Assembly: GCA_963555815.3 (NCBI GenBank)
Contig: CAUVWX020000001.1
Location: forward strand, 640,001-704,000
Length of the DNA stretch: 64,000 nt
DNA from: a bacterium
GTDB lineage: Bacteria; UBA8248; JACPRG01; G963555815
Reading direction: 5' to 3'
Position 1 is the stretch's first letter. Each line of letters opens with the position of its first letter. Shown here piece by piece: positions 36,710 through 41,271 of this stretch. The notes beneath the pieces were generated by a model, which was given only the letters and a program-made list of their open reading frames with translations, had not been told where the DNA came from and did no database searches. The translations under genes were made by a program, and so were the position numbers.

Positions 36710-36893
36710 CCTGATCGGCGTCTCACACTTCCTCCACAGCTCAATCTAGCACCTCGCCAAGCGGGCGTTTTCCCTCTTCTGTTGGGCCGCCAGGGGCCCC
36801 TCAATTTTTCAGAAAAAACGGTAGTGGGTCGTTTTGATTGATTAATTAACGTGTTCGAGGGGGGGGGTGTTTTGAAAGGTTTTAGGGATCGTT

Positions 36894-36918
36894 AGTGCGT
36901 TATGCCGCTTAACGCACT
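36894..36918. terminator. hairpin downstream of doc
   Basis: AGTGCGTTA-7 nt-TAACGCACT, 9-bp stem, 16 nt after the doc stop; no strong U tail. Confidence 0.4.
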
Positions 36919-36934
36919 TCGGAGAGCACGTTTT

Positions 36935-37375
36935 TCAAGGTCTAGCAAAGTCCCGCAAGGAACACCTTGGAGACAGCCACTCTTCGAATTCTTCTTTTCC
37001 CGTCTGTCCGTCTGCAATTTGAAGGAAAACCGCCGCAATTTCGCCTTGTTTGGCGTCTAATGAATATCCGTTTAAGCCCAGGAAACGGACTACACTGAGG
37101 GCGGCAATCCTCTTGTTGCCATCATTAAATGCGTGGGCTTGGCAGACATGAAATTCATAGGCAGCAGCCATCCCAAGAGGGAAAGAGTGTAAATATTCAC
37201 CGCCTGATGTAGCCCTCGCTTGGTGGATTGCGCTCTCAAGGGCGTTTCGATCTCTTAGCCCTGGCATTCCTCCAAATTCTTCAATAGCTGTCAAATGGGC
37301 CCCTATAACGTCTTCAATAAACAAAAAAGCGGGGCCGTAGCTTCTCACACGACCCCGCCCCGTTAAAACCATCAA
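36935..37375 (-). CDS. doc: Doc (death-on-curing) Fic-family toxin
   Basis: HAFNDGNKRIA Doc-type Fic motif, FGGMPGLRDRNALESA, FLGLNGY. Confidence 0.9.
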   Translation of the reverse strand: MMVLTGRGRVRSYGPAFLFIEDVIGAHLTAIEEFGGMPGLRDRNALESAIHQARATSGGEYLHSFPLGMAAAYEFHVCQAHAFNDGNKRIAALSVVRFLGLNGYSLDAKQGEIAAVFLQIADGQTGKEEFEEWLSPRCSLRDFARP

Positions 37376-37376
37376 A

Positions 37377-37928
37377 CTAAAGATTTGCTAGGCTTTTAAA
37401 ATCTTCTCGGTATTTCTCTAGGCTCTCCTTGGTTACTTTCTCAAGAATTGCCTTTCGTCTGCACGCCATAGTCCCAACAATGTCTATACATTCATACTGC
37501 TTGGCCTTTACCATCGGTAGAGTAGAGTAGACATACTTAACGAATCTGCCCCACGGAAGCCTCCATGTGTCCTCAATAACCTTTCTTAGCACAATCTTTT
37601 CCTCGTTTGTAAGGGCTTCAGCGACAACCTGCTTTTGGAGATCGGTGGCTTTCCACTCATACCACCGCTTTTTATCGCCATACATGGTGACATCTTCGTG
37701 GATTTCAATCTTCTTCCCATCAAGAGACTCCACATAGGAATCACCGGCCCCAACAAATGGGCCATGGTTGTTAAAAATCCACCTTGTTTGCGTGAGTTGC
37801 TCTCCATTTCCCCACGCCCATTCAACATCTAGCAAGTAAATGAGCTTATCGAGCCTACCGCTCGTAAGCTCTTGGGGTCTGGGGTATTCTGAGACCAAGA
37901 AATCCACTAAGTCCGAGAATCTCGCCAC
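37377..37928 (-). CDS. Panacea (DUF4065/SocA-like) antitoxin
   Basis: 'LTSGRLDKLIYLLD', 'WIFNNHGPF', 'LRKVIEDTW...YVYSTLPM'; GGAGGTG RBS before GTG; 1 nt upstream of doc. Confidence 0.8.
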   Translation of the reverse strand: MARFSDLVDFLVSEYPRPQELTSGRLDKLIYLLDVEWAWGNGEQLTQTRWIFNNHGPFVGAGDSYVESLDGKKIEIHEDVTMYGDKKRWYEWKATDLQKQVVAEALTNEEKIVLRKVIEDTWRLPWGRFVKYVYSTLPMVKAKQYECIDIVGTMACRRKAILEKVTKESLEKYREDFKSLANL

Positions 37929-38039
37929 GGTTCGTCACCTCCACACTATTAATTTGGTAGATGGCGGTGAGGCACGTCAATAGCTTTTTCGCACTATGTA
38001 AAAAATATGGATTATTTTCTGCGTATCTATTAACACGCC

Positions 38040-38522
38040 ATGCCTCGGGGTCTATATTGTTTCTCAGCGTTTGACCTATTGGTAACCGGAGTGGATCCAA
38101 TAACTTTCAATGAGTCCGTAAAGAGCCAGATCGAAGTCCTCGCGGCTGGGGAGGCCCATATTCTAAGCACGATTGCTCCCCTACAAAAGGAGCTTGAGGA
38201 GATCAGGGCTCGGATGAACCACCTAGAAGGTTATTTGGCTGCCCTTGATTCGGGTGAGGCGCAAAAGGGCCTGAAAGAGAAAGAGCCCATAACGGATAAG
38301 ATTGTCCGTGTATTCGAAAGAGAAAAGCGTCCTCTTCACTACCTGGAGGTCTTGTCTTTGCTTAGGGAGCAGGAGGGGTTTGTTATGACTGGAAAAGACC
38401 CAAAGGCAAATATGACAGCAAAGCTAGCAGGAAGTGCAAGGTTTAGCCGTCTCGACCGTGGTATTTACGTTCTCACAGAGTGGACCAAACAAAATCAAAG
38501 AAAAGCCCCGCAGGAGGACTAA
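38040..38522 (+). CDS. coiled-coil + HARE-HTH (HB1/ASXL/restriction endonuclease winged HTH) protein; start may be GTG 38091
   Basis: 'IVRVFEREKRPLHYLEVL...GKDPKANMTAKL...RFSRLDRGIYVLTEW' matches the HARE-HTH pattern. Confidence 0.7.
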   Translation: MPRGLYCFSAFDLLVTGVDPITFNESVKSQIEVLAAGEAHILSTIAPLQKELEEIRARMNHLEGYLAALDSGEAQKGLKEKEPITDKIVRVFEREKRPLHYLEVLSLLREQEGFVMTGKDPKANMTAKLAGSARFSRLDRGIYVLTEWTKQNQRKAPQED

Positions 38523-38536
38523 CCGTGCGGGGCTTT
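38493..38536 (-). terminator. intrinsic terminator, strongest for the minus strand
   Basis: Inverted repeat AAAGCCCCGCA (38502-38512) / TGCGGGGCTTT (38526-38536); on the minus strand the GC stem is followed by TTTTCTTTGATT. Confidence 0.7.
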
Positions 38537-38548
38537 GAAATTACTGGT

Positions 38549-38639
38549 GGATAGGGATAGGGGATAGTTCCCCTCGGGGACTTAAAATCCCACATAGTAT
38601 CCGGGCGGATATGCGGTTCGATTCCGCCCCTCTCCACCA
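38549..38639 (+). tRNA. non-canonical (8/4) allo-tRNA-like gene, anticodon TAA
   Basis: Acceptor GGATAGGG/CCCTCTCC (8 bp, one T:C mismatch); D stem AGGGGA/TCCCCT with 4-nt loop; anticodon arm GGGA-CTTAAAA-TCCC; variable stem GTATCC/GGATAT; T arm GCGG-TTCGATT-CCGC (4 bp); discriminator A plus encoded CCA. Confidence 0.8.
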
Positions 38640-38732
38640 CCACAATATTTTTGGGTGGGCCTCAGCGGTAACTGAGGCCCCTGGCAACACCGCTTGGGAT
38701 GTGCCCCCTAGCGATGCACCCACCCTCTGACG

Positions 38733-38761
38733 AATTTAGGCTAAATCCCTCGATTCGTCAA
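38733..38761 (-). promoter_or_regulatory. sigma70-like promoter pointing away from the transposase
   Basis: Minus strand TTGACG-17 nt-TAAATT, overlapped by inverted repeat TGACGAAT (38728-38735) / ATTCGTCA (38753-38760). Confidence 0.6.
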
Positions 38762-38810
38762 GCATCCAACGGCGGGCATCACTCCCAGGCCCTTTTGGGA
38801 GTGCCTACCG

Positions 38811-39635
38811 ATGAACGTCCTGCCACTCAAGCGCAAGGCCCTGGTCCTGTCTGCCATTACCGAGGGCACCTCTATTCGGGGGGCCTCTCGGCTAACCGGC
38901 GTCCAGAAAAACACCATCATCAAGCTTATCTGCGACACAGCTGAGAAATGCTGGGCCATTTCAGACAGTAAACTCAATGGAATACAGGCAAACGATCTTC
39001 AATGTGATGAGCTTTGGAGCTTTGTCGGGAAAAGGGACAAGAGACTCTACGGCCACGAGAGGCCCTATCTCGGCAGCCAGTTCATCTTTGTGGCCCTTGA
39101 GGCTCAGACAAAACCGATCCCCTGCTTCACCGTTGGGAAGCGTGATCTCTATACAGCAACCAAATTTATGCGGGATCTAAGAAAAAGGGTCTCAGGTCGG
39201 CCTCAACTCACGACAGACGCCTTCCAGGCATATCACACAGCTGTCCGCTTAGCCTTTGGGTCCGACGTGGACTATGCTCGGCTGGCTAAATCCTTTGCCA
39301 ACAACGGGACCCCAAGGCGGGAAGGCTATGCCCCATCTGATTTCAGGGCGATTAAGCCTGTCGTAATTAGCGGGAACCCCGACCCAAATAAAATCTCAAC
39401 CTCTTACGTTGAAAGGCAAAATTTGACGCTGCGGATGCAGATGCGTAGGTTTACCAGATTAACCAACGCCTTCAGTAAAAAGCTCCCAAACCTTAGGGCT
39501 GCGCTATGGCTTCACTTCACCTACTACAATTTTTGCAGGGTGCATCAGATGCTGGGGGTTACTCCGGCTATGGCCTCAAATATTTCCGATTACCCCTGGA
39601 ATTGGAGGGAAATTCTGTCGTGGCAAGCCCAATAA
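38811..39635 (+). CDS. IS1-family DDE transposase, single uninterrupted ORF
   Basis: N-terminal HTH (SIRGASRLTGVQKNTI); QCDELWSFVGK, LTTDAF, STSYVERQNLTLR, RRFTRLTNAFSKK. Confidence 0.9.
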   Translation: MNVLPLKRKALVLSAITEGTSIRGASRLTGVQKNTIIKLICDTAEKCWAISDSKLNGIQANDLQCDELWSFVGKRDKRLYGHERPYLGSQFIFVALEAQTKPIPCFTVGKRDLYTATKFMRDLRKRVSGRPQLTTDAFQAYHTAVRLAFGSDVDYARLAKSFANNGTPRREGYAPSDFRAIKPVVISGNPDPNKISTSYVERQNLTLRMQMRRFTRLTNAFSKKLPNLRAALWLHFTYYNFCRVHQMLGVTPAMASNISDYPWNWREILSWQAQ

Positions 39636-39709
39636 GGGACCGCAGAAAAGGGGCGCCTTTTATCCACCAGGAAAACGACCCACTACCGAAAAAACCTGTT
39701 GAAAAGTCT

Positions 39710-39738
39710 TTGATAAGGCGCAGTGCTTGCGGTATAAT
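39710..39738 (+). promoter_or_regulatory. dnaA promoter
   Basis: TTGATA-17 nt-TATAAT; DnaA-box-like sites nearby: TGTTGAAAA (39697-39705), GTTTCCACA (39863-39871), TGTTGATAA (39874-39882). Confidence 0.7.
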
Positions 39739-39945
39739 GGTATAGGTTTGAGAGAGCGTCCCCTGCCGAGTAAAAAGCGGCCCTTTCATAATGTTTTCAG
39801 AACCGACCTTCAGCTTTATAGCACCTACAGGGAAAACCTGGGGCGGAAGGGCCTCCGGAAAAGTTTCCACATCTGTTGATAATCTGTTTGTGTGTGTGTT
39901 TTTAGGTAGATGTACCGTGTTGGCCTGGGGGATTTACACAGCATA

Positions 39946-41271
39946 ATGGAAGAGATTTGGAAAAACGCCCTTGATTCCCTCCGGAAAAGCGCCGGGGGGC
40001 ACTCCGTTGGGACCATGCTGGACCCCGTCAAACCCAAGTCCTTTGACGGGCAGACGTTGACCGTCGCGGTCCCAAACCGGTTCTTCCGGGACTACCTCAG
40101 CGAGCACTACGGGAAGGCCATCTCGGACGCCCTTCAGAAAATGGCCGGACAGCCCATTGGCTTTCACGTGGTCATAGAAGGAGACCCCCGCCGTCCTCGA
40201 GTTGTCGCCGACGAGACCCCGCCCGGGATCAACGAGACCCCCCAAAGCCCTCCGGTCTTTCTGAACGCCCGTTACACTTTCGAGAACTTCATGGTCGGGT
40301 CCTCTAACCAGTTCGCCCACGCAGCCGCCCAGGCTGTTGCCGAGAGCCCGGCGACCGCTTATAACCCCCTATTCATCTACGGGGCCGTTGGGCTGGGCAA
40401 GACCCACCTAATGCACGCTATCGGGCATTTCGTCTTTGAGCGAAACCCGCACGCGAAGCTATGTTACGTCTCCTCTGAGAGCTTCACCCTCGACCTTATC
40501 AACTCCATCCGCCACGATCGGATGGGTGAGTTTCGCAACCGGTACCGGAAGATGGACGTCCTCCTGGTTGATGACATCCAGTTTATCGCGGGGAAGGACC
40601 GGACCCAGGAGGAGTTTTTCCATACTTTCAACACCCTCTATGAGTCAAAAAAACAGATCGTTCTCTCTTGCGACAAATATCCCAAGGAGATGATGGACCT
40701 TGAGGAGCGACTGCGCTCTCGCTTCGAATGGGGGCTTGTGGCGGACATCCAACCACCAGACCTCGAAACCAAGGTCGCCATTTTCAATAAGAAGGCCGAA
40801 GAGAACGGGATTGAGATCCCCCCTGACGTGGCCCTTTACGTCGCGGGGAAGATCCGGGCGAACGTGCGGCAGCTCGAGGGATGCCTGATCCGCCTGGGCG
40901 CCTTCAGCTCTTTAACAAAAACACCCATTACCATAGCCCTGGCAGATAAGATCCTCCACCAGATACTCCAGGAGGAGGAGAAGGCTATCACCATCGAGAC
41001 TATCCAGAAGGCTGTGGCGCAATACTTCGGTCTCAAGGTGTCTGACCTCCGGTCAAAGAGGCGCCAGCGGACTATTTCTGAACCCCGCCAGATCGCCATG
41101 TTCTTGTCCAGGGAACTAACAAAGGCCTCTTTACCGGAGATTGGGCGCCGGTTTGGGGGGAAGGATCACAGCACAGTCATCCATTCGTGTAAAAAGATTC
41201 AGTCTGCCAGGGAAAGCAACCCGACTATCCAGGCGGCCATCGACCGAGTTCGGGCAACACTTGAGGTTTAA
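39946..41271 (+). CDS. dnaA: chromosomal replication initiator DnaA
   Basis: YTFENF, YGAVGLGKTHL, DDIQFIAGK, RLRSRFEWGL, GGKDHSTVIH. Confidence 0.98.
   Translation: MEEIWKNALDSLRKSAGGHSVGTMLDPVKPKSFDGQTLTVAVPNRFFRDYLSEHYGKAISDALQKMAGQPIGFHVVIEGDPRRPRVVADETPPGINETPQSPPVFLNARYTFENFMVGSSNQFAHAAAQAVAESPATAYNPLFIYGAVGLGKTHLMHAIGHFVFERNPHAKLCYVSSESFTLDLINSIRHDRMGEFRNRYRKMDVLLVDDIQFIAGKDRTQEEFFHTFNTLYESKKQIVLSCDKYPKEMMDLEERLRSRFEWGLVADIQPPDLETKVAIFNKKAEENGIEIPPDVALYVAGKIRANVRQLEGCLIRLGAFSSLTKTPITIALADKILHQILQEEEKAITIETIQKAVAQYFGLKVSDLRSKRRQRTISEPRQIAMFLSRELTKASLPEIGRRFGGKDHSTVIHSCKKIQSARESNPTIQAAIDRVRATLEV

Follow-up and report, generated by a model that had tools for sequence, protein, structure and literature searches.

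The window, a 64,000-nt stretch of bacterial DNA, contains an IS1-family element with an antisense RNA module that, judging from comparison among related elements, is real, conserved and uncurated, and that would probably act to repress translation of the transposase by locking its ribosome-binding site (RBS) in a closed hairpin. We take this to be the likely job because the conserved, covarying part of the antisense RNA is predicted to pair with a segment of the RBS switch in the transposase leader. Observed directly in the DNA are the element and its motifs, the conservation of these motifs, a fold that favours one strand and complementarity that is specific to each element.

The antisense promoter and terminator are hosted by a 2,868-bp element (36820-39687) that has the features of the IS1 family, namely terminal inverted repeats, a target-site duplication in the 8-9-bp range, an empty site and an IS1-type DDE transposase. 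The left terminal inverted repeat (36820-36835, plus strand) is 16 bp long and perfectly matches the right one (39672-39687, minus strand), and the 8-bp target-site duplication (36812-36819 and 39688-39695) occurs as a single copy at the empty site of a same-genus genome (G005). Canonical IS1 relies on an InsA/InsB frameshift, and single-ORF members of the family also exist. This frameshift is absent in the window element, where the transposase (38811-39635, plus strand; Pfam DDE_Tnp_IS1) is one ORF of 274 aa that scores 27.4 bits against PF03400 (cut-off 24.1) with D66, D136 and E201 invariant. The cargo includes a Doc/Fic-type toxin gene (36935-37375, minus strand; Pfam Fic, E 8e-11) and a SocA/Panacea antitoxin gene (37377-37928, minus strand; Pfam PF13274, E 1e-7). 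Upstream of the transposase is a winged-HTH ORF (38040-38522, plus strand; HARE-HTH, E 6e-5, under the curated cut-off) with a 55% homolog in G002; its true start is probably at 38100, which is ATA in the window and ATG in strain contig X7. Relative to X7, the window copy has decayed, with an acceptor mismatch in the tRNA-like gene, an altered D loop and the ATA at the HTH start. The insertion point lies ~220-260 bp upstream of a gene that we take, from its translation, to be dnaA, directly before its promoter-like site at 39710-39738 (window 39688-39946).

The antisense promoter (38733-38761, minus strand) is a sigma-70-type TTGACG-17-TAAATT site with 9/12 matches and a predicted start near 38726, and it is also an inverted repeat (38729-38759). 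The intrinsic terminator T1 (38497-38536, minus strand) consists of a hairpin of -18.9 kcal/mol followed by TTTTCTTT; the U-tract is found on the minus strand only, and none was found at T1 on the plus strand. With its end 221-228 nt past the predicted start, the antisense RNA is predicted to be 228-230 nt long and to cover the whole tRNA-like gene (38549-38639). The promoter, the terminator and the full antisense overlap described in the initial annotation are all present, and both promoter and terminator recur at corresponding places in related elements. The minus strand over these 230 nt has a folding energy of -114.4 kcal/mol (z -5.8). Raw motif counts in the region are at chance level (4 promoters versus 2.4 expected and 3 terminators versus 3.1 expected), and the case therefore rests on comparison among relatives. 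When scored with an approximate weight matrix, the homologous antisense promoter ranks first among 301 minus-strand positions in 7/8 close relatives and second in the remaining one. A small share of the reads of one RNA run gave a single 227-nt contig that lies only on the Panacea gene, and a second run gave none, which speaks neither for nor against the antisense RNA. We consider a functional minus-strand RNA likely. The initial annotation had seen no clear plus-strand promoter just upstream of the tRNA, but a plausible one exists farther away, upstream of the HTH gene (38030-38058, plus strand; 10/12 matches), and two relatives (L164 and L165) have TTGACA-17-TATATT at the matching place. We infer that this site would be the source of an HTH-tRNA-transposase mRNA, with read-through of the T1 hairpin.

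A transposase search of 51 genomes of the phylum gave 16 matches in 9 genomes, and eight transposases with 50-100% identity form one clade (SH-aLRT 99) in a quick tree from which L083 and L037 were left out. An antisense TTGA-17-TA site is found at the matching place in 8/8 members of this clade, and a tRNA-like gene occupies the same spot in 6/8, with bodies and anticodons that differ. The two other members (L167 and L173) lack the tRNA, yet they keep the promoter, the structured segment and the antisense terminator. A ninth close member (G047), which is tRNA-less and truncated, was found by the RNA model described below; altogether, 3/9 close members are without a tRNA, and the promoter, two-hairpin fold and terminator persist in the tRNA-less L167, L173 and L265.

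Two hairpins make up the first ~80 nt of the predicted RNA: SL1 (38683-38726, minus strand), a G-U-rich 5' hairpin whose loop is complementary to the core of the segment that we call anti-anti-SD, and SL2 (38653-38681, minus strand), which is not followed by a U-tract in the window. This fold is more stable on the minus strand in 8/8 close relatives (-43.8 to -58.9 versus -28.3 to -41.2 kcal/mol on the plus strand), with 5-7 G-U pairs versus 0-2. A seven-member consensus has 26 pairs (-32.3) on the minus strand versus 15 pairs (-18.6) on the plus strand, where SL1 is nearly gone. In the minus-strand structure, which was derived from the same rows that were scored for pairing, 93% of cells are paired and 8 pairs are changed on both sides, against 38-50% paired in slid controls. 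In strain contig X7 (a single contig at depth 5.7), SL2 differs by three G>A changes, which the minus-strand hairpin tolerates as G-U pairs (-12.7) and which disrupt its plus-strand counterpart (-5.6); because G>A is the commonest change in that contig (16/42), we regard these changes as supporting rather than decisive. At the gathering score, Rfam has no family for the module in the window and 20 related loci, and only weak, unrelated matches appear at E<=5.

On the plus strand, the transposase leader contains a hairpin (38774-38805; -23.1 kcal/mol, z -2.9) in which an anti-SD arm (38774-38788) pairs with the SD arm (38795-38805), giving what would be the OFF state. A hairpin that hides the SD just before the start codon is found in all eight clade members (-18.8 to -28.3 kcal/mol). 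The predicted target of the antisense RNA is the anti-anti-SD segment (38693-38706, plus strand), for which the cognate duplex has an energy of -35.3 kcal/mol with 0/500 shuffles as good. Across the clade, the segment under SL1 is complementary to the anti-SD arm in an element-specific manner (cognate mean of -31.0 versus -22.4 kcal/mol for non-cognate pairs), with the true pairing being the best of 40,320 permutations and 0-8/500 shuffles as good, although these duplex tests used segments picked after the pairing had been seen by eye in eight members that are kin, and part of the signal could be local duplication because the anti-anti-SD segment resembles the SD arm. When the stretch that the antisense RNA would occupy is masked, opening the RBS becomes more costly in 8/8 members, by 7.4-13.0 kcal/mol. 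The nascent leader (38690-38800) folds in the ON form (z -3.97), whereas the full leader of the window favours OFF at equilibrium by 6.5 kcal/mol (-72.7 versus -66.2 kcal/mol), and the switch would therefore need kinetics or a ribosome. A candidate for the latter is a putative leader-peptide ORF in the -1 frame that overlaps the transposase start (38714-38944, plus strand). An ATG aligned under SL1 opens such an ORF through the transposase start in 6/8 clade members, and the -1 frame is open in 25/31 module elements versus 12 and 15 for the other frames. A start codon is present in only 11 of the 31, and the leader peptide is thus possible. The antisense promoter keeps step with the transposase start, its -35 lying at -44 to -50 from that start in 7/8 clade members and at -27 in L172; in the window, the antisense RNA starts 85 nt upstream of the transposase ATG and does not overlap the RBS. 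No sense terminator was found in the window leader, and control would therefore be translational.

The mechanism that we propose, each functional step of which we infer from sequence and folding models, would begin with a sense mRNA that runs from the promoter at 38030 through the HTH gene, T1, the tRNA and the leader. During its synthesis, 38693-38706 would pair with the anti-SD arm and leave the SD open (ON), perhaps aided by a ribosome on the leader peptide. Capture of 38693-38706 by the loop of the antisense RNA would instead allow the anti-SD:SD hairpin to form (OFF), and action of the antisense RNA in trans would provide copy-number feedback. The 3' part over the tRNA would result from transcription running on to T1, and it may in addition keep the tRNA from maturing; the mechanism leaves the conservation of this read-through unexplained.

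The module extends beyond the close relatives. We fetched 240 further transposase loci (214 non-redundant), in which a strict rule places a promoter-like site directly before the gene on the sense strand in 50, on the antisense strand only in 28, on both in 6 and on neither in 130. Among the 28 antisense-only loci, the minus-strand fold is the better one in 21 (mean of -30.2 versus -23.0), while 56 sense-promoter controls show no such preference (-17.9 versus -17.3). A covariance model built from seven clade members and run on 257 sources matched seven held-out elements (L006, L008, L013, L223, L247, L249 and L258; E 1e-4 to 0.4), all on the minus strand and just before the transposase; it did not detect L002/L172, L001 or the Zn-ribbon group. 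Among 23 distant candidates for the module, masking has an effect of at least 5 kcal/mol in 12, of 3-4 in 2 and of <2 in 9. A pattern scan of viral contigs for SL2 of the clade found none. We rejected the mere presence of an antisense promoter anywhere in -170 to 0 as a diagnostic, since 116/189 tRNA-less elements have one, probably representing divergent cargo promoters. An antisense promoter downstream of the tRNA is found in 25/38 tRNA-bearing elements versus 8/48 host tRNAs. The RNA model also matches upstream of small non-transposase ORFs (L161:5172-5250 and L142:4070-4162), and the module may therefore be portable.

The tRNA-like gene under the antisense RNA (38549-38639, plus strand) is of the 8/4 allo-tRNA type, with anticodon UAA (38583-38585), A73 and an encoded CCA, and it scores 50.4 bits with the Rfam tRNA-Sec model. 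It has the 8/4 acceptor branch, the long D stem with a tetraloop and the long variable arm. The acceptor stem contains one U-C mismatch, where strain contigs X6 and X7 have a G-C pair instead. In place of the serine-type G73/U73 discriminator of most allo-tRNAs, A73 precedes the CCA. A73 is a Leu determinant and the anticodon is that of Leu, and the tRNA may therefore not mistranslate. We rejected an ochre suppressor, as the UAA of the anticodon loop reads the Leu codon UUA. Same-strand tRNA genes are enriched in the 500 nt before the transposase (9/135 loci versus 0-2 in other bins); an ARAGORN search relaxed to 85% gave too much noise. A correspondence between the tRNA and the codons of its transposase was rejected for the window, where the transposase has 2 UUA codons and the others have 0-4. 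It does hold for both elements with a UAU-tRNA (L164 and L165), which have 4 AUA codons each, at positions 159, 177, 183 and 185, while the other six clade members have 0-2. In L165, a tRNA minihelix (acceptor stem, T arm and ACCA) stands in tandem before the full tRNA(UAU), at ~-320 to -270 from the transposase start, suggesting a possible role in processing for the tRNA top half, as a signal. Within the cargo, a strong terminator-like hairpin with a U-run (37320-37375, minus strand) lies within codons 1 to ~17 of the doc ORF, immediately behind an early UUA codon; in a post hoc reading, translation-coupled attenuation tied to tRNA(UAA) is possible.

How far the tRNA is itself a target can be judged from a set of 32 hand-picked module elements, of which 20 have an adjacent tRNA and 12 do not. 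Within the 20, the first antisense terminator-like site is past the tRNA 3' end in 15, before the tRNA in 2 and undetected in 3; in 3 of those 15, the first site is a weak one inside the tRNA, with a stronger one beyond. The layout around odd tRNA genes is conserved in relatives (15/20); the initial annotation had proposed such a check for homologous allo-tRNA(UAA) genes. Overall, 18/20 have no antisense terminator before the tRNA, while among the 12 that lack an adjacent tRNA, 6 terminate within 95 nt, and placement is associated with tRNA presence (Fisher p 0.03, in a hand-picked set whose kin are not independent). As coverage of the tRNA is a conserved trait, anti-tRNA action stays plausible as a second role. 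The initial annotation had gone further and proposed an anti-tRNA sRNA as the main product, and one could extend this to an odd tRNA that is a mistranslating RNA toxin neutralized by the antisense RNA as its antitoxin. Type VIII toxin-antitoxin (TA) systems are such pairs of an RNA toxin and an antisense RNA antitoxin. Consistent with this reading are the difference in terminator placement, the recurrence of the layout in three separate clades and three elements (L016, L044 and L180) in which an antisense promoter-like site within 70 nt of the transposase start lies near the 3' end of a degenerate tRNA-like gene without the two hairpins; furthermore, according to the available part of one report, an allo-tRNA(UAA) caused Leu codons to be read as Ser, and inducing allo-tRNA was lethal to E. 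coli (PMC5389517). We nonetheless consider it unlikely as the main job. The co-occurrence expected of a toxin RNA and its antitoxin RNA is not seen, with the module lacking an adjacent tRNA in 12/32 elements and 15/38 tRNA-bearing elements falling outside the module list. The covarying part targets the RBS switch, the combination of A73 with a Leu anticodon and the acceptor mismatch of the window copy argue against a mistranslating toxin, and the slot holds varying anticodons and bodies, some of them only minihelices. Because the module persists without a tRNA and because the tRNA lies outside the antisense unit in an IS1595 element (L001), anti-tRNA action is not the core role. Conceivable, though doubtful, is a combination of the two in which, across a widespread IS1 lineage, a single antisense RNA serves a double purpose: with its 5' hairpin it would close a plasmid-style switch on transposase translation, and with its 3' extension it would silence a captured, swappable tRNA in a fixed slot. 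The outcome would be an addiction or mistranslation module made only of RNA and set free along with transposition.

Alternatively, the promoter might act mainly through convergent transcription, with polymerases colliding or RNase III degrading the duplex, or its inverted repeat might serve as a DNA operator; the RNA fold would then be secondary. The inverted repeat is present in the clade, the predicted transcripts overlap by ~230 nt and OFF is the equilibrium state in the window, but neither the G-U-biased SL1 fold right at +1 nor the cognate anti-anti-SD pairing is explained in this way, making this reading quite improbable. The proposal of the initial annotation that the RNA pair forms a switch coupled to the TA system, here Panacea-Doc, fares worse and is in our view very unlikely. 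In its favour, the element carries both Panacea and Doc as cargo, 4 of the 146 doc codons are UUA (versus 1.9 per 1000 in long ORFs of the genome), and TA genes are common beside allo-tRNAs in the available text of PMC5389517. The cargo, however, differs between sister elements: Panacea is alone in G002, G037 carries Gp49/RelE-like and HTH_3 genes, G009 carries HTH_3 and a similar ORF without a Pfam match, a PemK toxin occurs without a tRNA in G040, and L002 and G039 have a tRNA without recognizable TA genes. As the module persists without a tRNA and with no constant toxin-antitoxin pair, coupling is not supported. Base pairing of the RNA to the TA mRNA was likewise rejected, as the longest complement is 9 nt and is equalled or beaten by 17/30 shuffles. 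Finally, that the motifs are due to chance or that the transcript is an mRNA for the 60-aa ORF on this strand is hardly credible: regional motif counts do equal chance levels and the ORF does exist, but the positional conservation, strand-biased covariation and held-out model matches speak against chance, and the ORF, which as noted in the initial annotation belongs to no recognized family (no Pfam match), has no counterpart in the other seven clade members, leading us to reject a peptide role.

Repression of transposase translation, the reading that we favour, would most resemble the logic of the Inc RNA of plasmid ColIb-P9, which is encoded ~100 bp upstream of the repZ start and competes for a segment that opens an SD hairpin, as described in the available part of PMC4705826. 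Common to that system (PMC4705826) and to the predictions for the window element are an antisense RNA encoded upstream of the start, an SD held in a hairpin, its opening through long-range pairing with a segment farther upstream and competition by the antisense RNA; in the window element, the hidden SD and its opening by the antisense target are predicted and covarying, and an overlapping leader ORF is possible as well. Unlike Inc, which controls a plasmid replication initiator, the window RNA would target a transposase and also covers a tRNA gene; no homology between the two was detected, and the leader ORF is putative. The ON state of ColIb-P9 is described in the same text as a pseudoknot nucleated by 4 bp, whereas that of the window is a predicted long hairpin of 10-15+ bp, from folding programs that exclude pseudoknots. 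IS10 RNA-OUT and IS200 art200, as presented in the available sections of PMC4513863, are also cis-antisense RNAs inside an IS, opposite the transposase leader and with a stable stem-loop, and IS200 has an SD-sequestering 5'UTR hairpin like that of the window element. In this known form of transposase control, the RNA covers the translation start region (PMC4513863), whereas the window RNA starts upstream and would act indirectly through the anti-anti-SD segment; in addition, the IS families differ and the window module has no Rfam match. With its other target or position and without an Rfam match, the window module is a member of neither the ColIb-P9 Inc nor the RNA-OUT/art200 group, and we found no description of it in IS1 elements in the open-access literature. 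An uncurated RNA family hence appears to use indirect, plasmid-type logic (anti-anti-SD competition) in IS1-family elements of several phyla.

Allo-tRNAs have been reported beside TA genes and a transposon (available parts of PMC5389517 and PMC7609411). The window tRNA shares this neighbourhood (PMC5389517) and has the 12-bp 8/4 acceptor branch, 6-bp D stem with tetraloop, long variable arm and non-Ser anticodon of these tRNAs (PMC5389517, PMC7609411), differing by its A73 from the G73/U73 of known ones (PMC5389517). Neither of these texts, in the parts available, describes an antisense unit or a transposase switch beside allo-tRNAs. The unexplained allo-tRNAs thereby gain a defined genetic context, a slot in a transposase leader that is bracketed by an antisense promoter and terminator, and their role and the tolerance of the host become testable with simple reporter fusions.

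In pT181/pIP501 attenuation, an antisense RNA decides between two leader folds. The window leader differs in having no sense terminator, and the likeness is instead with a sister IS1595 element in the same genome (L001:5030-5305; G000 C1 ~814,030-814,305). This element has a short two-hairpin antisense unit with a TTGACA-17-TAAAGT promoter. The target of the unit and the 5' arm of a sense terminator, located before a long-arm tRNA(UGG) and the transposase, can pair with each other. As predicted by folding, the terminator forms either way at equilibrium and the antiterminator fold is seen only in nascent RNA; on this modelling, L001 is an attenuation version of the module. The same locus has an exact copy of the terminal repeat of the window element (L001:6276-6291) that overlaps the IS1595 transposase gene at its end; no partner was found in the locus. 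A second IS1-family element in the genome of the window (L002:4286-6253; G000 C1 ~980,285-982,252) has no recognizable TA cargo and carries an HTH gene, a long-arm tRNA with a Pro (UGG) anticodon and the same type of antisense promoter.
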